From UHGV virus genome UHGV-0163196: a stretch of 42,561 bases of DNA, one strand, 5' to 3'. The translations under genes were made by a program, and so were the position numbers. Below, piece by piece: positions 2,362 through 36,021 of this stretch (positions are counted from its first letter, which is position 1; the number at the start of each line of letters is the position of its first letter). Under the pieces are notes generated by a model. That model ran no database searches, had not been told where the DNA came from, and was given only the letters and a program-made list of their open reading frames with translations. Source of the DNA: a virus.

Positions 2362-2715
2362 TTATGCCTCGCTTGTTACAGTCGTCTGGCCGTAGATTGT
2401 GTCAATGGAGGAAGTGAAGGTGACGCGACGGCTGGTGCCGTCATAATTGGTATCGAAGGAAAGAATCGACAGAACGCCCGGTGTATCCTGTATGCGTTCG
2501 CGTATAGCCAGGATGTAGACATCTGATCGCTGCTTCCCAAGCACTGACTGAACATACGGCGTGCCTTCCGTCAGATCGAGAAACCACTGACCGCGCCACA
2601 GCTCGAAACGGGTTTTTACGGCCTGGGCGACACACTCCGGGCTGTCGATAAGGAAGGTGTCGTCACCCTGCCCGAAAGTGTAATCGCCGTCAGCATCTTC
2701 TCGTCGGTATCGCAT
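2362..2715 (-). CDS. Small baseplate wedge protein (gpW/gp25-like)
   Basis: 117 aa ORF between the spike and J-like genes; size and position fit gpW/gp25-like proteins. Confidence 0.45.
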   Translation of the reverse strand: MRYRREDADGDYTFGQGDDTFLIDSPECVAQAVKTRFELWRGQWFLDLTEGTPYVQSVLGKQRSDVYILAIRERIQDTPGVLSILSFDTNYDGTSRRVTFTSSIDTIYGQTTVTSEA

Positions 2716-3452
2716 CAGTTTACCCCACCAGAATTGCCGCTACCCGTCTGAACGCCTTTGTGGGTGTGCGTGTCATCAATAGATTTACCGTTAGATTTAA
2801 GCGTCCCAAAGAATTCAATCGCACCAGTAATTTTCGCCGCTGTTCCGCTGGCAAGACTGCCGACCATCCCCCCCATCCAGGTGAGTAGACCGGTAATCGT
2901 TACCTTCGCTGAGAATGTCGATTCAGGCGCGATAACATCCAGGCCGCCTGGCGCTACAATTTTAATTTTCTGCGTGGTGGGGTTGAGCTCAAAATACGTG
3001 CTCCCATCGTCGCTGCGCAGCTGCGTTGCTCCGGTACTGATTCCACCGATTTTTTGTGCTTGCGACTGCGGGCCAACGATGGCGAACGCATCCGATAAAT
3101 CATGCTGACGCGGGTCGACGGTCTCCTGAACGCCGCCGCTCTGCCACCAGAAATCGATGCAACGGTCGGCAAAGATCAGCAGGCACTCGTCGCCTTCTTT
3201 AACCGGAAAGGTCAGTGTGCAACCGCCACCGCGCGGGAAGATAACCGGCACATCCACCAGCGGTTTTAATTCGGTGGAGCCGTCGCCAACAATACCGCGT
3301 AGCGCCACCTCTACTGTGCAGGTAACAGTCTCAGGATCGAACGACTGAATGATGCCGGGCATCGCTACGCGCATCTGGGTCGACACCGAATCGGCAATGG
3401 CCTGCGCGGTCTGCTGCTCACCGCCGATCTGTGATTGAGTTGGAATTGGCAT
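2715..3452 (-). CDS. Baseplate spike/assembly protein V-like
   Basis: 245 aa; contains RQHDLSDAFAIVG and a C-terminal HTHKG...G-rich tip typical of gpV/gp5-like spikes. Confidence 0.6.
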   Translation of the reverse strand: MPIPTQSQIGGEQQTAQAIADSVSTQMRVAMPGIIQSFDPETVTCTVEVALRGIVGDGSTELKPLVDVPVIFPRGGGCTLTFPVKEGDECLLIFADRCIDFWWQSGGVQETVDPRQHDLSDAFAIVGPQSQAQKIGGISTGATQLRSDDGSTYFELNPTTQKIKIVAPGGLDVIAPESTFSAKVTITGLLTWMGGMVGSLASGTAAKITGAIEFFGTLKSNGKSIDDTHTHKGVQTGSGNSGGVN

Positions 3453-3462
3453 AAAAACCCCA

Positions 3463-3488
3463 TAAAAAAACCCGCTCGGCGGCGGGTT
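3463..3488 (-). terminator. Putative intrinsic terminator downstream of doc
   Basis: GC stem cccgc/gcggg at 3471-3486 with a run of A on the plus strand at 3463-3470, giving a U-run on the minus-strand transcript just after the doc stop. Confidence 0.4.
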
Positions 3489-3510
3489 GTGTACAATTTA
3501 CTTTTTGCTA

Positions 3511-3918
3511 TCAGTAGCCAGTTATCGTATCTGCCAGCAGCTCATTCTTATAATCTGACAAAAGTTTAAGCGCCAAAGCAGTGTTATCGCAGTCGGCCTC
3601 TCCCGTAGCAGCAAAGATGGTCAGCTTGACTAACTCCATTGAGGTATTCAGTTCATAGCCATTCAAAAGCAAAAACACGCTGGCGGCCTGGAAAGCCGTT
3701 CGCTTATTGGCGTCATTAAAAGCGTGAGACTTCGCTATCGCAACCATGTACATAGCTGCAAATTTAAATAAATCCTCACATCCTTCATACATGCGTAAGT
3801 TATCGACGCGATTGAGGGCACCTTCGAGTTTTCCCCGGTCTGGTTGTCCGCTATTTGGCAATGTGCTCTTCTGAATAGCGATGACCTCATCTACCGAAAG
3901 GAATGTAATCTCAGTCAT
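3511..3918 (-). CDS. doc: Doc (death-on-curing) family toxin
   Basis: 135 aa; Fic/Doc-like sequence (…AAMYMVAIAKSHAFNDANKRTAFQAASVFLLLNGYEL…); start overlaps the stop of the upstream antitoxin gene. Confidence 0.8.
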   Translation of the reverse strand: MTEITFLSVDEVIAIQKSTLPNSGQPDRGKLEGALNRVDNLRMYEGCEDLFKFAAMYMVAIAKSHAFNDANKRTAFQAASVFLLLNGYELNTSMELVKLTIFAATGEADCDNTALALKLLSDYKNELLADTITGY

Positions 3919-4331
3919 TACTTATCTTCCAGTTTTTTTATGATGTCCGCATGCTTGGTCTGAGTATGTTGCAGAGCTTTGATAAATGACTCAGACACGC
4001 CCTGCAAAGCAACTGCTGCATTAGTGGCCTTCATCATAGTCTGGCGAGCCTCATCAGACTGAAGAAGGGCATCCAATTGCTTAGTAAGCTTCATGACACC
4101 CTCCGTTATCTGTGGTGACAAATTCGATGCAATTAATTGCGCAAGATGCGTGTCTATTGTTTTCGCAGATGTTTTTACCTCATCTGCGGAAGCAATTTCA
4201 TCAACTGATTTTGCACTGATGACAAGGTCGGGCTTTCCGCGCTGCGTAACTGTGACGCTTTCACCAGAGCGTAAACAGTCCAGCGTTGCAGATAAATCCG
4301 ATCGCATTTGCGTGTAAGTAATGATTTTCAT
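3918..4331 (-). CDS. phd: Phd/YefM family antitoxin with C-terminal extension
   Basis: Probable start MKIITYTQMRSDLSATLD at 4331; the N-terminal ~75 aa look Phd-like, followed by a ~60 aa extension; sits immediately upstream of doc. Confidence 0.7.
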   Translation of the reverse strand: MKIITYTQMRSDLSATLDCLRSGESVTVTQRGKPDLVISAKSVDEIASADEVKTSAKTIDTHLAQLIASNLSPQITEGVMKLTKQLDALLQSDEARQTMMKATNAAVALQGVSESFIKALQHTQTKHADIIKKLEDK

Positions 4332-4341
4332 GGCACCCTCT

Positions 4342-4386
4342 CTGTACATGTACAGATTAGTGCATAATAAAAACGCGAGATCAACG
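4342..4386 (-). promoter_or_regulatory. Putative phd-doc promoter with palindromic operator
   Basis: Perfect 14-bp palindrome CTGTACATGTACAG at 4342-4355 directly upstream of the phd start; -10-like CATAAT (minus strand) at 4363-4368 and TTGATC at 4381-4386. Confidence 0.4.
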
Positions 4387-4413
4387 ATTATTGATGTTTA
4401 AGGATGCGGATCA

Positions 4414-4758
4414 TCATTTCACCTTCACGCAGTCGTATGTTGCATACTGACGCGGCGCGTTCATGCTGGCTTGCAACCACTGTGCGTTGAGAATGGCTTT
4501 GCCGTTTCGATTGATGTACTCAAGACCAACCCATCTTCCAGGCTGATCGGTAGCCATACGCCAATCCATCTTGATATTGTTATAATCGCCTTTGTTTTTC
4601 AGGAAGGTGATTTTTTGCATTTCTGGCTTTGCGCCATTGATTCTGGCTAAGCCATCATCTGCCCAATGGATTTTAAAATCACCACATTGCTGATCCGCAA
4701 AAGCGGGTGCTGATATAAGCACCGCGAACACGGTAACAGTGCAAAGTAAATGTCTCAC
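4414..4758 (-). CDS. Secreted/periplasmic protein of unknown function (moron)
   Basis: 114 aa ORF with GTG start preceded by GAGGTGGGG; N-terminus MRHLLCTVTVFAVLISAPAFA-DQQ looks like a Sec signal peptide; inserted between baseplate genes. Confidence 0.5.
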   Translation of the reverse strand: MRHLLCTVTVFAVLISAPAFADQQCGDFKIHWADDGLARINGAKPEMQKITFLKNKGDYNNIKMDWRMATDQPGRWVGLEYINRNGKAILNAQWLQASMNAPRQYATYDCVKVK

Positions 4759-14737: not shown

Positions 14738-14969
14738 CCGGTACAGGAATGCAAGGCTATTATTTAATCACCTGAAATATAAGGGTTTATTTGCAGTCTG
14801 ATTTTGCGTGTAGTCCATAGGCTGCTCTGTGATGTATGTCGCTGAATGGGGTAAGTTACTCAATAACAGATCTGTAGGATTTACAGGGGATTTCAATATG
14901 CAAGCTGTGCCACCAGCCCATTAGCGAACGGCGCTATTTTCCGCGCGTGACGTGTCACGGCGCTGGTGG

Positions 14970-15443
14970 TTATCCCATGAATTTGCGGTATACCTCCCCG
15001 GCTTCTTCGGCGGTTAGGTTCGTTGTTTCCGTTCTGATCGGACCACCATCCTTACCCGTTGTTTCAACCTTTAATTTGTTGGTGTAAGCGTCCCCGCACT
15101 CTTTCGCGGCCTGTTCGATAAGCTGTGCTGTTAATGCGTAATTCTTGATTGCCTCTGCACGGTTCGCCATGCGATCGAGCATACGCAGCCGGTACGCTTT
15201 GTTAGCGATAGGGATATCGGATATTTCACTCTGGAAGCGGGCGCGAGTGTGATTAAAGAGTTCTACCCATTTTTGGCTAAGATTTTTAGCCATTGTATTT
15301 TCAGGGTTGTAGGCCGATATCTGTTGCCGGGTAACAACGATGCCAAAATCTTGTTTTACAAGTTCGACGATTCTGGAAGGGGGTTCATAGCAAGCTAATG
15401 ATTGAATAATCATAACCTTAGCCATTGTTGGTAATGCCGCCAT
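14970..15443 (-). CDS. Small terminase-like protein (Sf6 gp1-like; candidate packaging-redirection factor)
   Basis: 157 aa; C-terminus KLKVETTGKDGGPIRTETTNLTAEEA resembles the Sf6 gp1 terminus (…VGKDGGAIQIETSP…); lies far from terL, inside the island. Confidence 0.55.
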   Translation of the reverse strand: MAALPTMAKVMIIQSLACYEPPSRIVELVKQDFGIVVTRQQISAYNPENTMAKNLSQKWVELFNHTRARFQSEISDIPIANKAYRLRMLDRMANRAEAIKNYALTAQLIEQAAKECGDAYTNKLKVETTGKDGGPIRTETTNLTAEEAGEVYRKFMG

Positions 15444-15535
15444 TGTTCACCTTTTGACAAAGGAAATAAAAGTAGCGTGCTGAGTTCTGCCCCTGCACCG
15501 CTACTTAAAGTTACAGATCACGTCATGGGTAGCTA

Positions 15536-16108
15536 TCACTCGCTCTCCAGATCCTCAAGAGAGAAGCAAATATGCTGTGTTGAAACAAAATAGCTCAGCA
15601 TGCTGCTTACCTTGTTTGACGCGACGTAATTATAATGCTCGACCATCTTTGCTAACGCGATAATCTCCCACCAGTAATGCTTAACTAGCTTTAGCGAAAT
15701 TAAATAAGCCCGGCTATAGAGCTTGTCGCAATCATCTCCTGTTGCGCCTTGGTTCCTGTATTGCTCAAGCACTTTCCGAATATCGCTGGCGTCTCCTTTC
15801 CCTCCATTTTCCAGTAGTTTTTCAGGTGGTTCGCCTGAGTAAAGGTGTTGTGCCATTACGCCAGAAAAAGAGACGACCATCTGCGCCAGTTCATCTTTTC
15901 TGACGGGGAGATGTGAGCATACCGCCCGGCAATTATCGACCTCTTTGCCGTTAGCCAGTCGAGCAATACGAAACTCATCAGCAATAGATATCTCAATTTG
16001 CCTAGCACCCGTAAACCACGCAGCCATCGCGTGACCGGCTTCATGGATCGCGATATTTCTGTCCCACATAGGGCTTTTGCTGAATTCAACAATTACGCCA
16101 TCACTCAC
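15536..16108 (-). CDS. Standalone HExxH zinc metallopeptidase-like protein
   Basis: 190 aa with the motif IAIHEAGHAMAAW (HEAGH, as in FtsH/M41 and ImmA-like peptidases) and no ATPase domain. Confidence 0.5.
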   Translation of the reverse strand: MSDGVIVEFSKSPMWDRNIAIHEAGHAMAAWFTGARQIEISIADEFRIARLANGKEVDNCRAVCSHLPVRKDELAQMVVSFSGVMAQHLYSGEPPEKLLENGGKGDASDIRKVLEQYRNQGATGDDCDKLYSRAYLISLKLVKHYWWEIIALAKMVEHYNYVASNKVSSMLSYFVSTQHICFSLEDLESE

Positions 16109-16170
16109 GCTGCTTACTCTCCGTTAGATCTGTCATTTAGTTAAATTGAACTGCGTTGGGGGAGTCTCCA

Positions 16171-16350
16171 TCACACACTCCCTTCAACTGCTATTGATTC
16201 CAGCGCCTTAGCCACCAGCCCACGAGCAATTTGATGGACAGACGGCGCGACGCCAATATCGGAGCGCTGGCGTTCGCGCTCCTGGATCTTGCAGATTGCG
16301 GCGAACTGGTCGCCAGAGAGTAATACCGGCTTAACGTTTGGCTTTTTCAT
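16171..16350 (-). CDS. Small hypothetical protein (59 aa)
   Basis: Internal start MKKPNVKPVLLSG… of the 112 aa track ORF; the other reading would overlap the upstream 64 aa gene. Confidence 0.3.
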   Translation of the reverse strand: MKKPNVKPVLLSGDQFAAICKIQERERQRSDIGVAPSVHQIARGLVAKALESIAVEGSV

Positions 16351-16525
16351 CCTGTTCACTCCAGAACTTTGCATTCGCTTCGTTGACTTTTTCCAGATTG
16401 CGGCATTCGTTGTTGAAGTTGTTGCGCATCCGCAATTGCTCGGCCTGTTCACGGCCAAAGAGTTTACGCCCGGCGCTTTGCGGGTTTCCTGCAGCCAATT
16501 TCGGGTCATAAATAGCCATGCTCAT
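16331..16525 (-). CDS. Small basic hypothetical protein (64 aa)
   Basis: ATG preceded by AAGGAG with good spacing; lysine/glutamate-rich and probably helical. Confidence 0.4.
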   Translation of the reverse strand: MSMAIYDPKLAAGNPQSAGRKLFGREQAEQLRMRNNFNNECRNLEKVNEANAKFWSEQDEKAKR

Positions 16526-16531
16526 TGCTCC

Positions 16532-17095
16532 TTACTTCGTGCGATGCCAGAAACTGGCGTTATCGGTGTTAATGCTGCGAATGGCGTCGCCTGTGGAGAG
16601 AATCTTCGGTGAAACGTTGTTAACTCGCATGTAGTCGCCAACCTGCTCCAGAACGTCGATAGCCTGATCAAGCTGAATCTCTGATAGCGGGGTCGGATGT
16701 ACCGCACTGAATGCCTCAGCGGGTGCGTAACGCAGCACATCAAGCGCAACAAGGCGAGGATCGGTATCAGGAAGGGCGTTGTCATACTTTGGTGCTACAG
16801 CGCGTACCAGGCGCATAAATTCAGCGTCCATTGCCGTTGGTGCGGTAGAGGTGGGAGAAGCGCCGCTGCCACTACGTGTAATCATGTCACTATCGCGGGT
16901 GTACATCCGGCGCAAGCGGTCTCCGGTTGCAATGCGTGTTGCACGTTCCTGCTTAAGCGTCGTTGCAAGATTCGCAATGACGAGAGCCACAGGAAGCGAG
17001 CAGGTCAGCCTTTCGAACGTATCATCGGAGTAAGTCACCTCGACGGTACCACCAGCGTTATCACTTTCCAGATTAACATTGGTTATCTGTTTCAT
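16532..17095 (-). CDS. Hypothetical protein (187 aa), first gene of the island's left module
   Basis: ORF following a promoter-like AT-rich region at 17100-17250; no recognisable motif. Confidence 0.45.
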   Translation of the reverse strand: MKQITNVNLESDNAGGTVEVTYSDDTFERLTCSLPVALVIANLATTLKQERATRIATGDRLRRMYTRDSDMITRSGSGASPTSTAPTAMDAEFMRLVRAVAPKYDNALPDTDPRLVALDVLRYAPAEAFSAVHPTPLSEIQLDQAIDVLEQVGDYMRVNNVSPKILSTGDAIRSINTDNASFWHRTK

Positions 17096-17378
17096 TGTTC
17101 ATAACCTTTTGCGTTGTTTAAATTCTGATCATTGCATAAATTGCAACATTAGTAAATATCATTGCGCATATTGAAATGGCAAATCGACGTGATACTATGA
17201 CGGTGATCCACCATTGTGTGATTGCATAAACATGGTTATCAAAAGCCCTCGCCTCTCCAGCGCGGGCTTTTTCTTTTCCGCTCCGCAAAGTTGCCGTTTC
17301 CGCATACTTTCACTTAGGCGACGCCCCTCCAAATTCGTAATTACTCTCCGAAAAAACTCTATAGATAAGCAAAAACAT

Positions 17379-17675
17379 GTTGGTTCAGTTGGTTCAGTTG
17401 GTTCAATTTGTAAAGATTGTTGTTTTATAAGGATTATTTCTTTCAGAGTGAACCAACAAAGCCCCGTTTTGAACCAACAAACGCTATTTTCGTGTTGGTT
17501 CAGTGGGAAAGATTTACAGGCCAGCCAGAAAAAGGCGTTGGTTCAATAGCGGCATTTGTTGGTTCAAAATGGGCGTTTGTTGGTTCGGTGTTGGTTCACT
17601 TACAAGCATGTAAATGCATTAAATACATACACTTATATTAATTAAATAGTTACTGAACCAACTGAACCAACAAAA
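17379..17675. repeat. Iteron cluster: candidate satellite replication origin
   Basis: At least 12 copies of the core TTGGTTCA in both orientations (for example 17379-17405 tandem, 17449-17457, 17470-17478, 17494-17502, 17654-17670), interspersed with AT-rich DNA, immediately downstream of the primase-helicase gene. Confidence 0.7.
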
Positions 17676-17696
17676 AAACATCTCGTATGTGTGTTT

Positions 17697-20477
17697 TTAT
17701 TCTTCACCCTCCATCTCGTCGGGTCGTAGCTGGAGCACATAAACGTTTATCTGGCGTCCATCAATTCGCGGGGATTTACGCTGATACCCCCTTCCGCTGG
17801 CTGGCGGTTTCAGCACCCCAGCCCCGGCCAGCACACGGGCAAACTGTTTCGCGTTGAATCCCTTCGCAATCTCACCTTCGAATGCTGCCGGGAACGTGTA
17901 GAACACTATCGGATCAGCATCATGCGCCCCTTTCTGACGGTACCCGGCCAAATCCCGAATCGGCATGTCAGCCGGGTCATAAGGGTAAGGTGCAAATCGG
18001 CTCAGTCCGTATGCATTAAGAAACGCCTCTGCCTGCTCGATGATCTGCTTATGCTCACGGTTCCCCGTGCCAAACTCTTTCACCCAGGCGTTAAAGCCAT
18101 GCTGGATGGCGTCCCGGCTTTCCTGCTCCCCCCAGCCAGTGACAGGCATCCCAAGCACCAGCGCCGCCTCCAGAATGGCGAACCGCTCGCCTACACGATG
18201 AACCTGTTCGCCATAATCAGCGGGGATAAGACTGCGCCAGCGCTCTTGCGCCGCTCTGACAGCTTGTTTTGCCTCCTGCTGGTGGCCTGCAAGCCATTTA
18301 ATCCATTCACGGCCTGCGGCTCCGTGGTTCGTCTGGTAAGCCTCTTTGAGTGCGTCGGCGTGTTGCTTCCCGTTCTGGTACTCATGGTGCGTTACTGATT
18401 TCTCCATCGGTAAATTAAGCAGCCGCACCAGTTGTCCGGCCTTAACTTTCAGCCCACCAGCAGAAAGAAACGTCTCAATGTCCATTTCCCCGGTACTGAT
18501 CGCCACGGTACGCCAGCGCTTTAACTCGCGGTTGCCTCCCTCCTTCGCCCCCTGTAGCTTTCCGGCACCGTTAAACAGCGTGTAAGCTGACGTGGCAACG
18601 TCTTTGGCGCTACTGCCCTGCCCCACTTCGTCCAGCGGTAACAGGCTATCGTTATGCGCTTCCGCTTCGTTGGCGATACCCAGCGCAGTACCGTACCAGG
18701 TGAGGCGCAGGGCATCCGGTTCACCGTATAAACTGCTGGCAATGTTGGCGGTCGTTGTCTTCCCTGCGCTGGACTGTTCGAAAAGGTGAACACCGAAACC
18801 GTCAGCGCCAACAAGCCCGATCAGCGGTGCAGACAGCGCAGCCGCAACACCCAGCATCATTGACGGGTTTCCCAACGCAAGACGCGCCACCGAATCACGC
18901 CAGCTTTCCGGCGTTCCACTGACGGTATAGCCACCAGCCGCCGCACTGCGGCCACTGAATAAAAGCGGTATCTCTGGATCACCAATAACATCACCATCCG
19001 GCATGATGTACGCCCCGCTGTGCCAGCCTGTGGTGTGGCTGATCTGCCACTCCTTGCCGCTACCGGTTCGCTGTAGCCAGTCGGCCAGAATTGCCCGCAA
19101 CGATGGTTTGGTCGTCACACTGACACCGCCGTTTTTCAGAGTTCGCCATCCCTCGCGGTCGCCAATGTCCTCCCAAGGAAGCGCACGGGTAACTTGCCCC
19201 CGATTGCCGGGAACGTCCCAACGCAGGATCAGAAAGCGCTGTCTGGCGTTATCACTCCCCGCACCAGCAATCTCCAGCGGAGAGCATAGCCACGCCTCGG
19301 TATTGATAATTTCCCCTGTGTCTTTGTCCACTTTCGGGGTGATCCAGTGAATGCCATCCGAACGGCTCTCTACTCGCGGTTTAAGGTCGTCGTCGATACC
19401 AGGGCTTTTTTTGCCGCCGTCGATTGCTGTCAGTGTCGCACCCACTTTCTTACCCTCCGGTTGATACATTGAGTCGTTAAATGCTGCTGTGGCCGCTTCG
19501 AGGCCGTATTGCTGGTGGTAGTCGTTCCAGTCCGCTTTATAGTCCACTGGTGGCATGGAAACCCAGCCAGAAACGGCTTTCGCGGCTTTCTCTGCGGCCT
19601 CCTTGCCAGTGTTAACTTTCACTCCTTTAATTCCGTCACTTTCGCCCATCTGGTCGTTATCTGCGGCAATGATGATTTGTGCCTGTGGGTACTTCCGGCG
19701 CATCACTTCGGCAACGGGTAGCAGGTTGCCCGCGTCAATTGCTGCCACTGCCAGCGCGTCCGGGCGCATCAGGTGAACTGAAAGGGCCGTCGCCAGCCCC
19801 TCGGCAATTAAAACGCTCTGCGGCGATTCTGGCGCGTTTACGGCATGATATGCCCCGCGCTTTGCTGAACCTGTCAGGAGTCGCTTCTCTCCCTGCGGTG
19901 TAATGGTTTGCGCTGCTGCCACTGCGCCGGATTCGTCCACCAGCTCCAGCAATAACGAACCATCAGGCATAACCGGATAGTTAAACCCGGTCAGCCCTTT
20001 TGATTGCAGGTAATCAGATTCGCCCTGTGTGGCACTCTGGCGCATTCCGGCATACAGACGGGCAAACGTAGCCCTTCGCTGCTCTGCGTCCCCTGCTGCC
20101 TGTTTCTGGCGCTCCTGCTCACGCTGCTGGCGGTCAGCTTCCAGTTGCTCCCTTCTATGGCTCGCTGCCACCGGGTCGGATTGCGCTGCCAGGTAATCAA
20201 TACCCAGCACGTCAGCGGCAAGCTGTGCCGCCTCCGTAGTGTCGCAGTTGTTAACCCGCTTGATTAAATCCAGCCCGTCACCAGCGCCACACTGGTTGCA
20301 GATAAAGCTACCGCGCCCGTTGTCGTCGAATCTGAAACGGTCTTTTCCACCACATGCAGGGCATGGAGAATGGCGGCGCGATGAATCAGGCACGTCGATA
20401 GACAACCCAGCCAGCACATAAGGCCAGCGCCCTGCTGCGGCGCTGGTCACTTCGCGGATAAGGTCGATATTACGCAT
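17697..20477 (-). CDS. P4 alpha-like primase-helicase (zinc-ribbon, TOPRIM, D5-like helicase)
   Basis: Zinc ribbon CPACGG…CNQCG, TOPRIM-like IIIAADNDQ, Walker A SSAGKTTT; ~925 aa. Start taken at MRNIDLIRE. Confidence 0.85.
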   Translation of the reverse strand: MRNIDLIREVTSAAAGRWPYVLAGLSIDVPDSSRRHSPCPACGGKDRFRFDDNGRGSFICNQCGAGDGLDLIKRVNNCDTTEAAQLAADVLGIDYLAAQSDPVAASHRREQLEADRQQREQERQKQAAGDAEQRRATFARLYAGMRQSATQGESDYLQSKGLTGFNYPVMPDGSLLLELVDESGAVAAAQTITPQGEKRLLTGSAKRGAYHAVNAPESPQSVLIAEGLATALSVHLMRPDALAVAAIDAGNLLPVAEVMRRKYPQAQIIIAADNDQMGESDGIKGVKVNTGKEAAEKAAKAVSGWVSMPPVDYKADWNDYHQQYGLEAATAAFNDSMYQPEGKKVGATLTAIDGGKKSPGIDDDLKPRVESRSDGIHWITPKVDKDTGEIINTEAWLCSPLEIAGAGSDNARQRFLILRWDVPGNRGQVTRALPWEDIGDREGWRTLKNGGVSVTTKPSLRAILADWLQRTGSGKEWQISHTTGWHSGAYIMPDGDVIGDPEIPLLFSGRSAAAGGYTVSGTPESWRDSVARLALGNPSMMLGVAAALSAPLIGLVGADGFGVHLFEQSSAGKTTTANIASSLYGEPDALRLTWYGTALGIANEAEAHNDSLLPLDEVGQGSSAKDVATSAYTLFNGAGKLQGAKEGGNRELKRWRTVAISTGEMDIETFLSAGGLKVKAGQLVRLLNLPMEKSVTHHEYQNGKQHADALKEAYQTNHGAAGREWIKWLAGHQQEAKQAVRAAQERWRSLIPADYGEQVHRVGERFAILEAALVLGMPVTGWGEQESRDAIQHGFNAWVKEFGTGNREHKQIIEQAEAFLNAYGLSRFAPYPYDPADMPIRDLAGYRQKGAHDADPIVFYTFPAAFEGEIAKGFNAKQFARVLAGAGVLKPPASGRGYQRKSPRIDGRQINVYVLQLRPDEMEGEE

Positions 20478-20811
20478 GGTTGCCTCCTGCCACGGTCGCG
20501 CCCATATCATTAATCATGCTTTGCCATATCTCGCGCCCGACGTCAGTCAATCCGTCCTTAGTGACGCAACGATCAAGAAGCTCGATCCCCACGGTTTCCC
20601 ACTGCGGGTAGAACACTTTCATGGCTGCCAGTGTGTAGCTATCGATCAGGCTGCGAACGCCTTTTACTCCATTGACGATTTCCACACGGACGGCGAGGCC
20701 GTCCGCATCAACCATGAAATAGTCCCCGCCGCTGGTGGCGGTAATGTGGTTATACAGTGCCGACGCATACTTATTCGCCAGCGCATTCAGTCGGAAATTT
20801 TTAGTAATCAT
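20470..20811 (-). CDS. Hypothetical protein (113 aa)
   Basis: ORF coupled to the primase start; no recognisable motif. Confidence 0.45.
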   Translation of the reverse strand: MITKNFRLNALANKYASALYNHITATSGGDYFMVDADGLAVRVEIVNGVKGVRSLIDSYTLAAMKVFYPQWETVGIELLDRCVTKDGLTDVGREIWQSMINDMGATVAGGNHA

Positions 20812-20820
20812 GTCGCCCCC

Positions 20821-21447
20821 TCAGTGCGCCAGCGGCATTTCAGGCCAGCCGTTTTCATCCAGTTCAGCTATAAAGCTGTTGTGAAGTTCAGCAAGCGTTT
20901 CACGCCCGAACGGGGTCAACTCGCCGCGCTCCGTGTCCAGCATGGCCTGATAAAAAACAATGGCGTTCGCCGTTCCCTGCTCAATGCCGTAGCGCTCAAT
21001 CATTGCGCCCTCGATGTTGTTCGCCATCGCCAGCCGTTCAGCAAACGGGTAAACCACCATGCCCGCATTACCATTGGAGTAAATCGCCACCTGCGATGAT
21101 GTGCCGTCAGCCTCAGTAACCGTGGTGGTGCCGTTCTCGCGCTTCATCTCAGAAACGAACGTCGCAGCAATCAGCCAGCGCCACATAGTGACGTTATGCT
21201 GCGCGGTGAAGTCGAACCAGCCACGCGCCCCGCCATCAGCAACGGCAAAATGAATGGCGTAGCCGATATCGGGCGTATCGTCGTACTCTCCCGCATCCAG
21301 ACGGCTTACAGCGCTCTCATAGGTGATAATGGCTACATGCTCATACATCCCGGCATCGTTGCGGGTCATGATATTGACGCCGTGCGGTGTGGCTTCGGCG
21401 TGGAACAGGTCGGGATTTCCCGGTTTAATGGTCAGTATATTGCTCAT
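20821..21447 (-). CDS. Hypothetical protein (208 aa)
   Basis: ORF in the island's early operon; no recognisable motif. Confidence 0.45.
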   Translation of the reverse strand: MSNILTIKPGNPDLFHAEATPHGVNIMTRNDAGMYEHVAIITYESAVSRLDAGEYDDTPDIGYAIHFAVADGGARGWFDFTAQHNVTMWRWLIAATFVSEMKRENGTTTVTEADGTSSQVAIYSNGNAGMVVYPFAERLAMANNIEGAMIERYGIEQGTANAIVFYQAMLDTERGELTPFGRETLAELHNSFIAELDENGWPEMPLAH

Positions 21448-21665
21448 GCTTTGCCCTCCCGATATTCACGCATTACATGGTCAGCTAGCTTGCTTTCAGC
21501 CTCGCTCATTGCTTCGGGCACACCGTGTAACAGCGTCAGAATGGAACCTATAAGGCGTGGTAAATCGGGATCTGTTTTATTGGTGGTGCTCTCCAGCCAC
21601 ATGGACAAAACAGCCTGTGCCTGTTCAATCTGGCAGGCAGCATCAATCAGTTGTAACTGGCTCAT
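21444..21665 (-). CDS. Hypothetical protein (73 aa)
   Basis: Small ORF overlapping its neighbours by 4 nt. Confidence 0.35.
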   Translation of the reverse strand: MSQLQLIDAACQIEQAQAVLSMWLESTTNKTDPDLPRLIGSILTLLHGVPEAMSEAESKLADHVMREYREGKA

Positions 21666-21925
21666 GCGCTGCCCTCCGCATCAATTCTGGCTATATCGAC
21701 AATCGTCAGGACTTTACTAAGCCAGCAATACGCGATGGCTGCTTGCTCAACTTCGAGGAGTGGTAATAAATCGGTCATAACGTGAGCCAGCCCATTGCGG
21801 GCGCGGGTCATGCGTTCTGCGGTACGCTCTGCCAGCGTGAAAGAGTCAGGGTACGGCTGTTCGCGGGATAGCATCGCCTCGGCCTCAAGATCTGCAGGAT
21901 GGCGATAGATGGTATGAATGTTCAC
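21662..21925 (-). CDS. Hypothetical protein (87 aa; GTG start or internal Met)
   Basis: ORF in series with the neighbouring small genes; start codon uncertain. Confidence 0.35.
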   Translation of the reverse strand: MNIHTIYRHPADLEAEAMLSREQPYPDSFTLAERTAERMTRARNGLAHVMTDLLPLLEVEQAAIAYCWLSKVLTIVDIARIDAEGSA

Positions 21926-22101
21926 GCTGCCACCTCCTGAATACGAGTAATACGAACGTGCTTATAACCGCCTTTATTCGCCAGTAGTTGCGCAGTCGAT
22001 TTAGCTGTTTCTGGACTGGTGCTAGTCATGGTGTAGTGAATGCCGACGGTGTTACCGCGCTTGTTAACAGCGTATCCGTCGATCTGGAAGGTTTTACGCA
22101 T
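21922..22101 (-). CDS. Small hypothetical protein (59 aa)
   Basis: Hand-translated MRKTFQIDGYAVNKRGNTVGIHYTMTSTSPETAKSTAQLLANKGGYKHVRITRIQEVAA; below the ORF track length cut-off. Confidence 0.3.
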   Translation of the reverse strand: MRKTFQIDGYAVNKRGNTVGIHYTMTSTSPETAKSTAQLLANKGGYKHVRITRIQEVAA

Positions 22102-22972
22102 TTCCGACCTCCATTGCTAAACGGGACTGGATAGCTGCCGCTTTACTGCCTAATTGCAGGTAAGTACGAGTTATCGCAGGGTTGCTATGACCCAGCATTT
22201 CAGAGGCCACTAATAGGCCCTGTTCGCCACCTGCGGACATGAGGTTAAAGGCGGCTATTTTGCGGCTTGAGTAGGCGCTCAGGCGCAATTTAGCGTTAAT
22301 GAAACGGGTAAACCACGCCATGACGCCATGAAGTTTGCGCCAGATGGTTTGGCGAGTAACGCTACCTTCCAGACGTTGACAACGGTTACTTTCGATTTGA
22401 GAGCGGGAAAATACCAGGTCGTCCTCCACCAGATTCCGATCCTGACGGTCACGCAGCCGCTTGATAATGCCGGGGGGTAACTGTTTGGTGTCGTGCTTGA
22501 CGTCAGCCTTAGCCACCAGCCCGAACACAATCGCCTGTTCTTCGTCGTTCATATCGGCGGCCAGTTCATCACAGCCGATACTATCCCACTTCATGTAGGC
22601 GATATGGTCAGCGGCGAGCCGCGCGGCGTCCTTGCGCTGCTGGCGCACAATTTCAATACCTTTGCGGGTTGCCCGCGCTTCTGCGGCTTTGGTCTGTTTG
22701 GAAACGATAATTGTCGCCTGTCCAGTTTCCCAATTGATGCAGGAATAGCGCAGGTTGCAAACGTCGCTGGTACGCCAGCCGGTTACGGTCGCAATATCCC
22801 ACCAGAGCAACACCCAATCGGGCTGTGTCTGCTGGATGCGCTCGCGTAGCTTGCGCTGCTCGTCACGGTCATAGACAGGGGTCATGGTGCGACTGCCCTT
22901 TGTGCTCGCCGCTTTAACGACATTGCCGCGCAGCTCGCGGGCTTTGGCTGTCAGAGTCTGGAGGTTAAACAT
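22094..22972 (-). CDS. Second tyrosine recombinase (short phage-integrase family, no arm-binding N-domain)
   Basis: About 292 aa from MFNLQTLTAKAREL; C-terminal LGHSNPAITRTYLQ with a candidate catalytic Tyr and conserved Arg/His positions. Confidence 0.65.
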   Translation of the reverse strand: MFNLQTLTAKARELRGNVVKAASTKGSRTMTPVYDRDEQRKLRERIQQTQPDWVLLWWDIATVTGWRTSDVCNLRYSCINWETGQATIIVSKQTKAAEARATRKGIEIVRQQRKDAARLAADHIAYMKWDSIGCDELAADMNDEEQAIVFGLVAKADVKHDTKQLPPGIIKRLRDRQDRNLVEDDLVFSRSQIESNRCQRLEGSVTRQTIWRKLHGVMAWFTRFINAKLRLSAYSSRKIAAFNLMSAGGEQGLLVASEMLGHSNPAITRTYLQLGSKAAAIQSRLAMEVGNA

Positions 22973-23153
22973 GACGCACCTCCGGCACTGGCAGACGTGC
23001 GGCCAGAGACAAAATAAAGTGCGGCGCAAGGATGCGGCGGGCTTCGCGTTCGGTCGCAGCCTCAACGGACAGACGGCAAGGTTTGGCTTTTTTATCGTGG
23101 CGATTCAGCGCGAGAAAGCGCCAGGTGAATTTTGAGTGTGCGGATCTAGCCAT
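22965..23153 (-). CDS. Small protein (possibly Icd/Ash-like)
   Basis: 62 aa, MARSAHSKFTWRFLALNRHDKKAKPCRLSVEA…; recalled resemblance to small Icd-like prophage proteins only. Confidence 0.35.
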   Translation of the reverse strand: MARSAHSKFTWRFLALNRHDKKAKPCRLSVEAATEREARRILAPHFILSLAARLPVPEVRHV

Positions 23154-23473
23154 TTTTAGCGGCTCCTAGAACATATTGAAGGAGTCTCGCCAGATGCTGC
23201 TAAACATGGGTGGCGAGACGTGACGGGGTTAGCAGACTGGCGTTCTAGGAAACCAGCAGGCGTTAAGCCTCCCCACCACGCCCCGCCATAAATCGGGGGT
23301 ATGGTTGGTTTTCGGGCGTAAAAATACCGCTATACGGAAATCAGCGGCTACCCGCTAGAACGTTCAGGCTGCTAAACCCGGCACCCGTTTTGTGAGGTGC
23401 GAAATAATCATAACCACACTACCCCGTTAAGCGCAAGGGAAATATCCCCTGCGCCCACAATGCAAACTTGTGA
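23154..23473. promoter_or_regulatory. Repeat-rich intergenic region (candidate recombinase/regulator binding sites)
   Basis: Motifs CTAGAAC and GCTGCTAAAC recur in direct and inverted orientation at 23161-23205, 23227-23250 and 23353-23377. Confidence 0.4.
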
Positions 23474-24544
23474 TTAGTACCCGCGAGAAGCGTAAACTCG
23501 TGCCATGCCAGCCCAATGAGAGAAAAGAATTTCCCACTTAATTGGGTTGTAGGTAATACTTCCATCGACTGCGGCAGCATTCCATGCCCGATCAGAAATA
23601 GAGCTATCTTTAGCAGTTTTCCCCCATTCAACAATATCCCTTGCTAAAGCCTGTACACATGCTCGACTGACTACCTTTTCGTCAACGTACGCCCCAACAT
23701 CAGAGCATGACTCCATACTCATGTTCAGGCTATTTTTAAGGGACTCCAGCCCGGCCACTGACATAAAGCGACGACCATTAGCGTATGCAACACCGTCATT
23801 CCTGATAGTGAACTTAACAGTGTGGAATGCGTCAACAATCATCCGCTGCTCTGGCGTCGGGTTCTGCCATAGCACAAGGTTAATCTCTCTCTCAGAAGCT
23901 ATTGATTCTGCTTTCTCACGCTTAACTCGTGCATCCCGTTCTGCCTGGTATTGTTTTTGATTTTCATCATGAGCCTTTTGGTAACTAGAGGCTAATGCGT
24001 CTCTGTTTTTGGCAAATGCTGCAATGCTATTTTTGAAATCGCTTCTGCTAACCTTGTTTAACCCCATACTCCAGCGGTCATTTTCGTAATCATCATAAAT
24101 GGCATCAACTTTTGCCGGATTACTCAGCACAGTCGCCAGATTAACCGGAATTTTAGCCATCTCGTCACTGATTCTCGCTACATGTTCGAAAGTCGATATA
24201 GAGCCAACTTCATGACTCCCATACTCATGATAAGCGGCATAAAAAATTGGAATAGATTGAGGTTTTTCGTTCACTGACTTAATGATGCTTTTTTCATCAC
24301 ATGACTGTTCACCCCATTTGAAAACACTTTTCCCACCATTTTTGTATGTGTTGCAATCATCAATACCCAAACGAACCAGCGCATCCCATCCGGGCCGTTT
24401 CTTGTAATCCTCGCTCTTGACAACATGCATTGTGGTTAGGGCTTTCGCAGGATCTAACTTGCCAGCGGTACAAGACACGATAGGAAAGGCCAGAGAAGCG
24501 CAGGCTGCTATCCTGAAAAGGCTCGTCAATCTTTCTTTTTTCAT
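23474..24544 (-). CDS. Lipoprotein of unknown function (island cargo)
   Basis: 356 aa; N-terminus MKKERLTSLFRIAACASLAFPIVSC carries a signal peptide with lipobox-like Cys; AT-richer than its surroundings; flanked by ~0.3 and ~0.9 kb non-coding DNA. Confidence 0.6.
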   Translation of the reverse strand: MKKERLTSLFRIAACASLAFPIVSCTAGKLDPAKALTTMHVVKSEDYKKRPGWDALVRLGIDDCNTYKNGGKSVFKWGEQSCDEKSIIKSVNEKPQSIPIFYAAYHEYGSHEVGSISTFEHVARISDEMAKIPVNLATVLSNPAKVDAIYDDYENDRWSMGLNKVSRSDFKNSIAAFAKNRDALASSYQKAHDENQKQYQAERDARVKREKAESIASEREINLVLWQNPTPEQRMIVDAFHTVKFTIRNDGVAYANGRRFMSVAGLESLKNSLNMSMESCSDVGAYVDEKVVSRACVQALARDIVEWGKTAKDSSISDRAWNAAAVDGSITYNPIKWEILFSHWAGMARVYASRGY

Positions 24545-24708
24545 CGTCCTAATGCTCTTTCAAACCAAGAATGTAGGACATAGTAAATTGTGGTTAATGG
24601 CAAGTCGATATAAAGGCCGGGTTATTGGCTTCGGTGCCAATATCATTTCTCCGAAATTTCATAACGCCTGTAATCGCTCGTTTCCCCATCTTGGGGACAT
24701 TTCAAAAC

Positions 24709-24828
24709 TGCGAATCAAAGTGCGAATGGAACTGCGAATTCGCAAAGAGAGAGCGCCGCTCAAAGCAGGCCGGATAAGGCTTCGCGGACATATTGCGAAT
24801 GCGAATCCACCAGAAACGAAACGCGAAT
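24709..24828. repeat. GCGAAT repeat cluster including the palindrome TGCGAATTCGCA
   Basis: Six copies of (T)GCGAAT within 120 bp; the 12-bp palindrome at 24733-24744 also occurs twice in the helper terS gene. Confidence 0.55.
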
Positions 24829-25384
24829 CACCCATAAACAAAACCGATACGCAGGGAGCGTACTGCCCGTATTCAATCGGCCGAAAAGTCAGCCGATTAA
24901 AATCATGCCCGGCTATCCCCTGAAATTTCAGGAGATCGAGAGCCACCAGCAGAGAACCGTTCATGCCATCGGTAACTTGCAGCCCGAAGCTCAAATCTGA
25001 GCGTTGACCGCCAGCCAGAAGAAACCATTTTAAATCCCGCGCCTTCTCTTTGGATGAACAGGGTTACTCCCCGTAATGCTGTGAACTGCCACGATGATTC
25101 GGGGTTGTGTTGCGCTGGCCTTTGAGTCCCGCACAAACACTGACCCACAAAATTTTTGTAGGTGACTGGCCCTCTTGATGAGGTGCTGTTTTGCGTAACC
25201 CTTAATGAGTTGTGCAAAGGCTCAACCCTTCAAAAGGGTTGCCTAACCACCGGCGATAGTAATAACCGCCAACCTATGAACACTATGAACACCTTTGAGC
25301 ATTTTTCTATAAACATTCCACTACTGCCCTATTTGATGCCTTTCTCTGGCTGGCCTGTGTAAGTTACCGTTGCTGGGAACTGAC

Positions 25385-25420
25385 AATAAAAAAGGCTTGC
25401 CCCTCTCAGGTAACAAGCCT
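25385..25420 (-). terminator. Putative intrinsic terminator downstream of alpA
   Basis: Stem aggcttg/caagcct at 25393-25420 with a run of A on the plus strand at 25386-25392 (U-run on the minus transcript). Confidence 0.4.
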
Positions 25421-25438
25421 TGTCTATCGCTCTGGATC

Positions 25439-25651
25439 TCACTCACTACAGATTCCGCGCTTTTGGCTCTGTCTTCCGATCCACGCCTCCACCTCATCGC
25501 GATACCAGCAATTGCGGCCGCCAACTTTGAAGGGCATCGGAAAGCCGTTCCCCTCATCCTTCAGAAATTCATAGAACGCAGAATCAGAACGGTAGCGTAG
25601 ACGGGCTTTAACTTCGACTTTGAGCAAAATATCACTGTTAGATATGGACAT
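25439..25651 (-). CDS. alpA: AlpA-family transcriptional regulator/excisionase
   Basis: 70 aa with the typical AlpA pattern (…FPMPFKVGGRNCWYRDEVEAWI…), directly downstream of the integrase gene. Confidence 0.75.
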   Translation of the reverse strand: MSISNSDILLKVEVKARLRYRSDSAFYEFLKDEGNGFPMPFKVGGRNCWYRDEVEAWIGRQSQKRGICSE

Positions 25652-25793
25652 AAAAACCTCATTATATATTCGATATAATTATATATGATTTGAATAAAAA
25701 AAACGCATTCCGGTTAGCTTTGGGCATAAAAAAAGCTGGCTTAAAGCCAGCTATACCCGTTTGAAATCATGATTATCCAGAAATGGATGTGCC

Positions 25794-27023
25794 TTACACA
25801 ACCAGCCTCAAGCCCTTATCGCCGCTGGTCTCCAGTATTTCGCCACACTCTGCGGCCTCGATAAAGTCCCCCCACCATTGCATTAAAACCCGGCGTTTTT
25901 CCAGATAGTCGCTACGGTTATAAACATTTCGAATCGCATCGGCGCTTTTGTGAGCGAGTGCAGCCTCAATCACATCAGGGTTGAACCCCTCGTCATTTAA
26001 AACTGTAGATGCCAACGCCCTGAACCCATGAGGAACAATCAGCCCTTTAAACGACGTTTTGTGTATCCCGGCCTGAGTCGCACAGCGTGAGATCGGCTTA
26101 TTTTCTTTTCGCCATGAGGGGAAAACATAATCGCAGCGCTTCCACTTTTCGGCCTCTTTAAGCACGTTTATAGCCTGGCTCGATAATGGGACTACGTGGG
26201 GGCGCTTTCCTTTCATCCGGCTTGCAGGGATTTGCCAGATTGAGTTATCAAAATCAATCTCATTCCAGAGAGCGCCGCCAGCCTCCGAAGGCCGGACCAT
26301 CGTAATGATCTGGAATAATAATGCCAGCTTTGATGGCTCCCATAAGCTCAACTCGTTCCATGCGCTTAAAAATTCGGGCAACCGCTCTTTCTGTAAAGTC
26401 GCTCTTGGCTCGTTTTTTTCAGCCGGGAATGCTTTACCAATTTTCGATAGCGGGTTGTGCTCAATAACCCCAATGTTTACCGCATAATCCATTATGGCGT
26501 TGATGGTAATAACCATTTTCGTAAGCGTTGATGGCCTTTCCCTGAAAGGTTTAAAAGCCTGAATAGTATCGGCTGCGTTTATTTTATGTACCGTGGTATG
26601 CCTAAAAATCGTGGAAAGATGCTTCAACGTCACATTGTGCGATTCAAGCGTGTTGCTTCTCGCACCTTCTTTAATCTTGATTTTTAGCCATTCATCGGCA
26701 ACGGCCTGAAATGACTGCGCGTACATTTTACGCTGTTCATTCCTGGCATCTTTTTTGACTTCGTTCGGATCTATCCCTCGCGCTACCATACGGCGCAGTT
26801 TCGAACGTTCCTCCCTCGCTTCGGACAAAGTAAACTCCGGGTATCGTCCAATAGTATAGGTTTGTCTCTTCTTCGTTACCGGGTGTACATACCGAAAACG
26901 CCATGACTTACCGCCCCGGCTTGTGATGTAAAGCAACAAACCGAAACCATCGTGCAAACTGAAATCCTTGCCCTGTGCCTTCGCGCTTTTCACTTCGACG
27001 CTAGTTAGTGGCCTAACAATCAT
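25794..27023 (-). CDS. int: P4-type tyrosine integrase
   Basis: 409 aa; N-terminal arm-binding domain typical of P4-like integrases (…DGFGLLLYITSRGGKSWRFRY…) and a C-terminal catalytic domain. Confidence 0.85.
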   Translation of the reverse strand: MIVRPLTSVEVKSAKAQGKDFSLHDGFGLLLYITSRGGKSWRFRYVHPVTKKRQTYTIGRYPEFTLSEAREERSKLRRMVARGIDPNEVKKDARNEQRKMYAQSFQAVADEWLKIKIKEGARSNTLESHNVTLKHLSTIFRHTTVHKINAADTIQAFKPFRERPSTLTKMVITINAIMDYAVNIGVIEHNPLSKIGKAFPAEKNEPRATLQKERLPEFLSAWNELSLWEPSKLALLFQIITMVRPSEAGGALWNEIDFDNSIWQIPASRMKGKRPHVVPLSSQAINVLKEAEKWKRCDYVFPSWRKENKPISRCATQAGIHKTSFKGLIVPHGFRALASTVLNDEGFNPDVIEAALAHKSADAIRNVYNRSDYLEKRRVLMQWWGDFIEAAECGEILETSGDKGLRLVV

Positions 27024-27237
27024 TCAACACCTCTCTGGCTACCATGTAATGCAAACGGCGCATGATTCTCTTTCTAGTCCCTCATGTACCGAATCAAAGC
27101 GAAATCCGGCGAATAAATCCGCACATGTTCGGAGTGTCATTTTTATGGTTCAGGCCAGTAACGCCGTATGATTCCGAACGATAACGCACTGATTAATAGA
27201 TATTAGTTGCATAAGGTACAGATATGCAGTCATTGGA

Positions 27238-31967: not shown

Positions 31968-32646
31968 TAAGGTCACGATCTCCATTACCGTCATCAACGC
32001 CAGCATCACGACGAAGGCGATCCGCTTCCAGAGACACTTTGTCAGTGGAGGCGAGCCGATGCTCTATAGATGCCTTTGTGAATTCCAGCGACTCAATGCG
32101 GGCCGTGTTACGGTGCATGGCTTTTTGCGCAGATGAAATTAGCTCGTGAAGATTATTGGCGGTATCGCCATCAGCTATTTCAAGCTCAGTCTGCCAGCGG
32201 CCAATATTTTCAGCAGCGGTAAGGTTCGCCGCACGCAACCAGAAAAGCTCATCATCAAGAGTGAGCGCCTGAGCATCCTCGGTAATGGCATCAGATAGAA
32301 GCATTCGGCGTCCATAGCCACCATGCTTCAATGCGTTCTGATTTCCGGGTCTGGAATTATAATGAGCGCGTTTCGTTTCTGGTGAGTTTGATGGTTTTGC
32401 GACTTCGCAGTTATCCACTAAGCCCGCTGGTGGCTTACTCTTTGCCACTTTCTCCTTTTGCGAATTCGCAGTTTTATTCGCACTTTTCTTTTGCGAATTC
32501 GCACTACCATTCGCAATTTTGATATAGCGCTTTGCAGTCGAGTAATTCAGTCCCTGCGCTTCACACCATTCTTTGGGGGAAATGCCGGTTTTGGCATGTT
32601 CGGACAGGAACCGTTGCTGAAGCTCGCCCCAGTCCGGCTTTGCCAT
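31891..32646 (-). CDS. terS: Terminase small subunit (HTH N-terminus)
   Basis: 251 aa directly upstream of terL; N-terminal HTH-like segment (ISPKEWCEAQGLNYSTAKRYI); contains palindromic DNA repeats. Confidence 0.55.
   Translation of the reverse strand: MAKPDWGELQQRFLSEHAKTGISPKEWCEAQGLNYSTAKRYIKIANGSANSQKKSANKTANSQKEKVAKSKPPAGLVDNCEVAKPSNSPETKRAHYNSRPGNQNALKHGGYGRRMLLSDAITEDAQALTLDDELFWLRAANLTAAENIGRWQTELEIADGDTANNLHELISSAQKAMHRNTARIESLEFTKASIEHRLASTDKVSLEADRLRRDAGVDDGNGDRDLNDFYSDIQTDPESGPKELLDDTGSK
32459..32516. repeat. Palindrome TGCGAATTCGCA x2 plus ATTCGCA half-sites inside terS (candidate pac/TerS recognition site)
   Basis: Full copies at 32459-32470 and 32492-32503, half-sites at 32476-32483 and 32508-32516; encodes the repeated peptide ANSQK. 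Confidence 0.4.
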
Positions 32647-35296: not shown

Positions 35297-35340
35297 CAGC
35301 ATATGTGAATATTATGGCTAAATGGCTAATTGCATGTCAA
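35297..35340 (-). promoter_or_regulatory. Putative late promoter pR' (qut region)
   Basis: Minus-strand TTGACA (plus 35335-35340) and CATAAT (plus 35311-35316) with ~18-nt spacer, overlapping the 3' end of Q. Confidence 0.4.
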
Positions 35341-35836: not shown

Positions 35837-36021
35837 CGTCTTCCCCTTTTGCCCTGTTTGACCATCAGGACGCCGTTAACTATTACGTGACGCTCGCCTT
35901 TGCTGTCTCGGTTGTACTTGAGCACTGTTCCTCTTGCGCAGGAAAGCATCCTTGCCACTTCGGTCTGATTGCCTCGTGTCTGGATAAGAAGCTCTGGTAT
36001 CGTTTGAATTGTGGCGTTCAT
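35833..36021 (-). CDS. ninH: NinH-like DNA-binding protein
   Basis: 62 aa; …YGNQTEVARMLSCARGTVLKY… matches the lambda NinH HTH region. Confidence 0.7.
   Translation of the reverse strand: MNATIQTIPELLIQTRGNQTEVARMLSCARGTVLKYNRDSKGERHVIVNGVLMVKQGKRGRR

Follow-up and report, generated by a model that had tools for sequence, protein, structure and literature searches.

Is the two-gene cassette at positions 3463 to 4413 of the virus genome UHGV-0163196 a working phd-doc toxin-antitoxin module, and what might such a module, with an antitoxin of unusual length, be doing among the baseplate genes of a phage? All coordinates given here are positions in the window, the whole stretch of 42,561 nt that we analyzed (Table 1). 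The original prediction placed a Doc toxin and a Phd antitoxin between baseplate genes; both genes were found there, co-oriented on the minus strand in the open reading frame list of the window, and the baseplate flanks were confirmed. We conclude that they very probably constitute a functional type II Phd-Doc operon, carried as a moron expressed in lysogeny within the tail/baseplate operon of a lambdoid-regulated, myovirus-type prophage.

The antitoxin gene precedes the toxin gene, and its stop codon overlaps the doc start codon in a TAATG at 3918, read directly in the sequence; phage P1 Phd-Doc has the same order and the same TAATG overlap. In eight of eight independent homologous loci (two Escherichia coli lineages, Pectobacterium, Serratia, Xenorhabdus, Klebsiella, Morganella, and Proteus), a Doc gene directly follows a long antitoxin and the layout of the junction is alike. 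A 143-aa reading of the antitoxin from the ATG at 4349 was rejected in favor of a start at the ATG at 4331, which has a GAGGG Shine-Dalgarno sequence; the codon at 4349 lies within the palindrome described below, and in the Serratia and Xenorhabdus homologs the corresponding reading is out of frame or then meets a stop. Nor is the length of the antitoxin an artifact of a miscalled start or stop. An identical 137-aa protein, WP_001515093.1, adjoins an identical Doc, WP_001515094.1, in E. coli ECONIH5; the exact antitoxin sequence is present on 506 contigs; and homologs range from 109 to 157 aa. RefSeq already names the identical proteins as a Phd/YefM antitoxin and a Doc toxin, and the cassette is an uncharacterized example of the known Phd-Doc kind. 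A full-text literature search with the two RefSeq accessions found no paper. A chaperone-addiction (TAC) type of system was considered and rejected, no third or SecB-like gene accompanying the pair in any locus.

The toxin was readily assigned. It scored 45.4 bits (1.5e-11; cut-off, 24) against the Pfam Fic family PF02661 and 81.3 bits (6e-23; cut-off, 38.65) against TIGR01550 DOC_P1, and it matched phrog_577, "Doc-like toxin," at 1.5e-33 and P1 Doc in the PDB (3k33) at an E value of 7e-20, with 41% identity. Its catalytic motif, H65-A-F-N-D-A-N-K-R73, is intact and fits the Doc-type Fic variant HxFx(D/N)(A/G)NKR; it is invariant across the clade and the same as that of P1 Doc over F-N-D-A-N-K-R, both proteins having HxFNDANKR. 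Alignment with P1 Doc and clade members showed that the C terminus is ~14 aa longer than that of P1 Doc, which is a feature of the clade. Searching outward from Doc, we found that the 135-aa Doc clade is broad in Enterobacterales. Across genera the Doc proteins are 70 to 94% identical, and the antitoxins of the same loci are 44 to 83% identical; one Xenorhabdus copy encodes a truncated Doc of 79 aa. Among deposited phage genomes there was no close copy of doc, the best match being 43% identical, and comparisons were therefore drawn from bacterial genomes. Weak matches of Doc to PADLOC candidate defense families (PDC-M59B, 1.9e-6) are no more than a hint that the protein might have a defense role, and the antitoxin had no match to any PADLOC defense family.

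At ~64 aa longer than the 73-aa P1 Phd, the antitoxin bears out the prediction that it is some 60 aa longer than usual. It matches Phd/YefM over its first 38 to 46 residues only, finding P1 Phd in the PDB at an E value of 0.015 over residues 2 to 46. A family profile was more sensitive, giving an E value of 7e-5 against PDB Phd and, in hhalign, a probability of 92.5% against P1 Phd over residues 1 to 45, and all 17 of the aligned family members matched PF02604 (best, 1.3e-9). In an AlphaFold2 (AF2) model, residues 1 to 40 were predicted with a local confidence score (pLDDT) of ~89, and this N-terminal domain superposed on P1 Phd at 1.7 to 2.2 Å over 38 to 43 residues. Residues 1 to 45, which align with residues 1 to 45 of P1 Phd and are predicted to share their fold, are thus assigned to a Phd/YefM-fold DNA-binding domain, an assignment that profile and fold together make solid. 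Only this domain was informative in a Foldseek search with the AF2 model; matches to the helical part were ignored because of its low confidence.

What lies beyond residue 45 differs from the extension originally proposed. In a conservation alignment of 17 antitoxin relatives (128 to 157 aa, down to 37% identity), a near-invariant N-terminal domain (residues 1 to 38) and a near-invariant C-terminal tail (consensus, F116-x-x-A-L-x-H-T-Q-T-K-H-A-D-I-I-K-K-L-E-D-K137) enclose a middle that is variable in length and poorly conserved. The extra length is real, but it is not C-terminal: it is a variable helical segment placed before a near-invariant helix. AF2 predicted residues 45 to 58 to be disordered, helices at 56 to 70, 73 to 91, and 93 to 109 with low confidence (pLDDT, 56 to 63), and a C-terminal helix at 114 to 136 with a pLDDT of 75 to 80. 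Across the clade, whose antitoxins span 109 to 157 aa, the middle varies from ~25 to ~95 residues, and the Klebsiella, Morganella, and Proteus proteins keep both the N-terminal domain and the ...KHA.II..LEDK tail. Judging from the alignment, the "extension" is better described as a variable-length helical insert (residues ~56 to 109; ~60 to 65 aa in comparison with P1 and Salmonella Phd) between a Phd-fold N-terminal domain and a C-terminal helix. The claim that such an antitoxin is atypical holds against the 73-aa Phd proteins of P1 and Salmonella but not within this Doc clade across Enterobacterales, where a long antitoxin is the rule. A Pfam scan of the 17 members and a PDB search with the family profile gave only chance-level matches for the extension, and a weak match to HTH_40 (E = 0.005, below cut-off) was rejected. 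When residues 45 to 137 alone were used in an exhaustive HMMER search of 1.84 billion representative proteins, 10 clusters were recovered, all with the same architecture and none with the extension fused to other domains.

Which part of this antitoxin neutralizes Doc? The N-terminal domain and the C-terminal tail are the best conserved parts and the middle is the least, and we take the tail as the likely neutralizing part because it is the most constrained while the middle evolves freely. By analogy with Phd, the near-invariant helix F116-K137 probably neutralizes Doc. Its invariant residues, F116, A119, L120, T123, H127, and I130, follow the register i, +3, +4, +7, +11, and +14. Six experimentally defined hot spots in the neutralization helix of Salmonella Phd, F56, I59, M60, H63, L67, and L70, of which the first is a "gatekeeper" phenylalanine (PMC9207808), have the same register, with a phenylalanine likewise leading, and MAFFT placed F56 of P1 Phd opposite F116. 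There is also precedent for a modular neutralizing element, "Phd-C," attached to unrelated domains. The PanA antitoxins (Ernits et al. 2023, PMC10440598) are likewise modular, with a short C-terminal helix thought to neutralize Doc, but their accessory part is Panacea (DUF4065), whereas here a Phd-fold domain is joined to an uncharacterized helical insert; the present tail is a presumed equivalent of Phd-C. We make no claim of homology between the tail and Phd-C, the Doc-binding residues 52 to 73 of P1 Phd having no detectable sequence similarity to the C-terminal helix here. The insert is read as a spacer or accessory segment rather than as a neutralizing one because the 109-aa Klebsiella homolog lacks most of it while keeping both ends.

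Upstream of the antitoxin gene lies a perfect palindrome, TCTGTACATGTACAGA, in which two TGTACA hexamers abut. A 14-bp palindrome at 4342 to 4355 had been put forward as a candidate operator; the palindrome is there, but it extends to 16 bp. Nine nucleotides separate its end from the antitoxin start codon, with 16 nt between the 3' GTAC and the ATG. The window has no other perfect palindrome of 16 bp, and those of 14 bp occur twice against ~2.5 expected by chance. Its significance rests not on a length of 14 bp but on its TGTACA content and its conservation. The 12-bp core TGTACATGTACA was found upstream of the antitoxin in each of the eight cassettes, 14 to 27 nt from the ATG, with antitoxins as low as 41 to 45% identical. 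The core forms 14 invariant columns in a row within diverged flanking DNA, and in Klebsiella the outer palindromic bases are altered symmetrically, giving CTTGTACATGTACAAG. In YefM-YoeB, TGTACA is the operator core defined by footprinting, and a long palindrome overlaps the −10 element (PMC1802561, PMC4803016). The YefM-YoeB and Axe-Txe systems of E. coli and Enterococcus thus share with this cassette the antitoxin DNA-binding fold, the TGTACA core, and a palindrome overlapping the −10 (here −10-like) element, although their toxins are RelE-fold RNases and not Doc kinases. P1 Pphd is similar in having GTGTACAC immediately 3' of its annotated −10 element: the palindrome TGTGTACACA comes right after the −10 element and a second, GAGTACAC, lies 13 bp downstream. 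In both P1 and this cassette a GTAC-centered palindrome directly follows the −10 sequence, a putative one here, and both modules are carried by temperate phages.

Does the cassette have a promoter of its own? A −10-like hexamer abuts the palindrome at the same position in all eight loci (TAATCT here; elsewhere TATTCT, TAACTT, TAATAT, and AAATAT). Its second base is always A and its sixth always T, and this T is at the same time the first base of the core. The −35-like hexamer here, TTGATC, stands 19 nt upstream, and in homologs the distance is 19 nt for TTGCTC, 17 nt for TTGCCT, and 16 nt for TTGACT. These elements make a promoter plausible, with TAATCT as a weak −10 element, and a repressor bound to the palindrome would, by analogy with P1 and YefM, cover both the −10 element and the transcription start.

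The surroundings of the cassette are those of a moron. Morons are additional genes, equipped with a promoter and a terminator of their own, that lie between conserved late genes of lambdoid phages such as HK97 and lambda. The cassette occupies a variable slot between the phrog_3443 gene, itself preceded by a baseplate hub-like gene, and the baseplate spike gene V. Homology to prophages carrying other cargo ends at 3475/3492 and resumes at 4414/4416, as it does in comparison with Citrobacter phage Omnitron, and we accordingly set the extent of the cassette at ~3476/3493 to 4413. Slot flanks were found in 45 complete E. coli genomes, and 6 of 5,426 complete E. coli genomes carried the phd-doc cassette. 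The GC content of the cassette, 44.2%, is below that of gene V (55.7%), the hub gene (52.1%), and the tail module (53.2%). The terminator that had been predicted after doc was found as a minus-strand hairpin running from 3488 to 3469 with a T7 tail; its stem has 7 pairs, 5 of them G-C, and it is separated from the stop codon of doc by 22 nt and from the start codon of gene V by 16 nt. The other genomic contexts examined, in Serratia, Xenorhabdus, and Pectobacterium, all likewise have a terminator-like hairpin after doc. The proposal of a classic moron layout was thus upheld, in the form of a swappable slot with the same flanks in relatives, deviant GC content, an operator-like palindrome, and a terminator. 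Lambdoid morons are alike in slot position, deviant GC content, 3' terminator, and co-orientation with a Q-antiterminated late operon; they differ in that the promoter is here a putative one and the terminator may be a standing part of the slot. Read from the sequence, slot polymorphism and deviant composition are the moron features present; the promoter is a candidate one. The adjoining phrog_3443 gene, with a GC content of 46%, is kept in all slot variants and is a second low-GC, nonstructural-looking gene in the baseplate operon.

How, then, would the module work? Antitoxin dimers would bind the palindrome and repress the operon by occluding the −10 element and the transcription start, following the P1, Salmonella, and YefM paradigms, with Doc probably acting as corepressor. 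Helix F116-K137 would fold onto Doc and block its active site, with residues ~56 to 109 serving as a spacer or accessory element. Were the labile antitoxin not replenished, free Doc would phosphorylate EF-Tu and arrest translation. In a lysogen, the terminator would keep cassette transcripts out of gene V, and in lytic growth late transcription, antiterminated by Q (gene at 35318 to 35836), would read through it. The phage most likely gains by being retained as a prophage (addiction), by excluding competing phages, or in both ways. P1 is a plasmid prophage whereas this prophage is integrated, so that classical postsegregational killing does not apply directly.

Several observations weigh against parts of this account. 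The individual antitoxin falls just below threshold against both family models, with 28.5 bits against PF02604 (cut-off, 29.8) and 20.2 bits against TIGR01552 (cut-off, 20.8). In a local alignment, antitoxin residues 46 to 137 scored 17 against residues 46 to 73 of P1 Phd, below the shuffled mean of 20.8, and the i+3/i+4/i+7 register of the tail would be expected of any amphipathic helix. The operator is a single 16-bp palindrome whose abutting TGTACA cores are 6 bp apart, center to center, in contrast to hexamer centers 12 bp apart in yefM-yoeB and two sites 13 bp apart in the P1 operator; binding stoichiometry and conditional cooperativity are therefore not simply transferable from YefM and P1. 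The promoter-like elements of the original prediction are weakly supported: there are the conserved −10-like hexamer and TTGATC, but a strict sigma-70 consensus scan upstream of the antitoxin gave no promoter here or in three homologous loci, and the 19-nt spacer is nonoptimal; the promoter is a tentative one. Finally, the two related prophages with other genes in the slot also have a terminator-like hairpin just before gene V, with a stem that differs in one of them and the T-tail and ribosome-binding site kept, and the terminator may thus belong to the slot and not to the cassette.

Could the insert be more than a spacer? It may be a functional domain that senses a phage or host trigger, binds Doc at a second site, or acts as an arm for oligomerization, in a module that serves mainly in phage-triggered abortive infection or exclusion and is regulated unlike P1 Phd-Doc. 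We regard this as unlikely. Most clade members retain the insert, if at variable length; Doc has its own ~14-aa C-terminal extension in this clade; the 6-bp operator geometry is unlike known cases; and accessory "sensor" domains on Phd-C have been proposed for PanA antitoxins (PMC10440598). The modules are almost always in prophages, in cargo slots, and an exclusion function would also suit the weak PADLOC matches of Doc. However, no part of the antitoxin is less conserved than the insert, which is modeled with low confidence, has no Pfam or PDB relatives, and is largely missing from the Klebsiella homolog, in which both conserved ends are kept. The Morganella cassette, moreover, is chromosomal and outside any prophage, and the antitoxin itself matches no defense family. 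A more specific variant seems to us quite unlikely: the long antitoxin and the unusual operator may form a distinct Phd-Doc regulatory architecture in which Doc would use the long, variable helical arms to bridge the two TGTACA cores, which, being 6 bp apart, face nearly opposite sides of the DNA. The arm might also be a trigger sensor, and the module would then serve in phage exclusion (abortive infection) rather than in addiction.

Two further readings concern whether the cassette is expressed and active at all. The pair might be transcribed only with the late tail operon, with which it is co-oriented, and the palindrome might act as a 5' hairpin in the mRNA near the Shine-Dalgarno sequence, which its 16 nt could form, or bind some other protein. 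The strict promoter scan, empty in four loci, would agree with this, but the palindrome and its abutting −10-like hexamer travel together in all eight loci into unrelated contexts, including a nonprophage chromosomal site, and one homologous cassette site is preceded by an upstream terminator of its own. The motif is, besides, the known DNA operator core of the Phd/YefM antitoxin family, and a toxin-antitoxin pair expressed in lytic growth only would have no obvious selectable role; we think this explanation very improbable. That the pair is an inactive remnant, either decaying or reduced to an orphan antitoxin beside a disabled toxin, strikes us as barely credible. Its rarity in complete E. 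coli genomes and the truncated Xenorhabdus Doc could be taken that way, but both frames are intact, the catalytic motif is invariant, Doc is well conserved between genera, the ends of the antitoxin are near invariant, and the identical antitoxin recurs on hundreds of contigs. A functional Phd-Doc operon expressed in lysogeny accommodates these facts best.

If the operon is functional, it is a further case of temperate phages with toxin-antitoxin cargo in exchangeable late-operon slots, cargo that may stabilize the prophage or exclude rival phages. The clade antitoxins have three parts, a Phd-fold domain, a variable insert, and an invariant tail, and go with a single composite TGTACATGTACA operator. 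They form a natural series for asking how much linker variation neutralization and conditional cooperativity tolerate and what the minimal Doc-neutralizing peptide is, the latter a question that bears on Doc-inhibitor work in Salmonella. Current understanding of Phd-Doc systems is not overturned.

Table 1. Features of the phd-doc cassette, its slot, homologous cassettes, and the nested satellite
Feature	Position or location	Strand	Description
doc toxin gene	3511-3918	minus	135 aa; Fic-fold kinase, Doc family
Antitoxin gene	3918-4331	minus	137 aa; alternative start at 4349 would give 143 aa
Shine-Dalgarno sequence GAGGG	4336-4340	minus	Serves antitoxin ATG 4331; conserved in homologous loci
Perfect 16-bp palindrome TCTGTACATGTACAGA	4341-4356		Two abutting TGTACA hexamers; candidate antitoxin operator
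−10-like hexamer TAATCT	4354-4359	minus	Last T is first base of TGTACA core; putative promoter element
−35-like hexamer TTGATC	4379-4384	minus	19 nt upstream of −10-like hexamer; weak, putative; read from sequence
Intrinsic-terminator-like hairpin	3469-3488	minus	AACCCGC-CGCCGA-GCGGGTT plus T7; from terminator scan, also in RNA fold
Variable cargo slot	3476-4413	minus	Between phrog_3443 stop (4414) and ribosome-binding site of spike gene V (start 3452)
Baseplate spike gene V	2715-3452	minus	Downstream flank of slot
phrog_3443 gene	4414-4758	minus	114 aa; N-terminal signal peptide, unknown function; immediately upstream of slot
Alternative slot cargo	L003 3376-3666	opposite	DUF4236 gene; related prophage
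Alternative slot cargo	L004 3197-3742		181-aa hypothetical protein; related prophage
Alternative slot cargo	L013 (Omnitron) 35545-35977		434-bp filler
Klebsiella homolog	Prophage		Antitoxin 109 aa
Morganella homolog	Chromosomal, outside any prophage		Antitoxin 150 aa
Proteus homolog	Prophage, adjoins baseplate genes		Antitoxin 155 aa
Satellite integrase	25794-27023
Satellite integrase-like fragment	22094-23065
Satellite P4-type primase	17697-20510		Toprim/DUF927; 937 aa
Satellite DUF2280 gene	14970-15443

The window as a whole is a lambdoid-regulated prophage of the E. coli type, with genes for cI, cII, DnaB, Dam, RusA, Q, lysis, terminase, portal, head, and tail. Its head operon is interrupted by a 12.5-kb integrative element at 14754 to 27208. 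The crossover core, CTGTACC, lies in a "cement protein" gene, which the element splits after codon 6 (MTAYLY|RMPVG). The site is uninterrupted in Citrobacter phage Omnitron, and the nested arrangement recurs in E. coli ECONIH5. The element fits the published helper-embedded satellite (HE-PICI) class (PMC10111431).

Within this satellite, at least six copies of an iteron-like repeat, GTTGGTTCA, lie at 17378 to 17620, just 3' of the primase gene, and probably mark the satellite replication origin. A C4 antisense RNA (Rfam RF01695) at 23206 to 23293 on the minus strand scored 75 bits against a gathering threshold of 45; it is a P1/P4-type immunity RNA and adjoins counterparts of the Icd-like and ash-family genes annotated in ECONIH5. 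The ~900 bp at 24545 to 25440 held no convincing open reading frame and no Rfam match above noise and carry no annotation in related genomes. In ECONIH5 the corresponding position is taken by a TumE-family toxin-antitoxin gene pair, which suggests that the stretch is a variable cargo or defense hotspot.

Clusters of the hexamer TGCGAA/TTCGCA occur only at 24709 to 24805, in this stretch poor in open reading frames, and at 32398 to 32515 in the helper, in the 5' part of the open reading frame immediately upstream of the large terminase gene (TerL). Within them the 12-bp palindrome TGCGAATTCGCA occurs exactly three times, and matches with up to one mismatch number 4, compared with 0.2 expected. 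The clusters may be a shared pac/packaging or regulator-binding site that the satellite copied from its helper. Two HNH_3 homing-endonuclease-like genes, one with a NUMOD4 motif, lie on the minus strand at 34518 to 35027 and 36645 to 37154 in the early/late-regulatory region.

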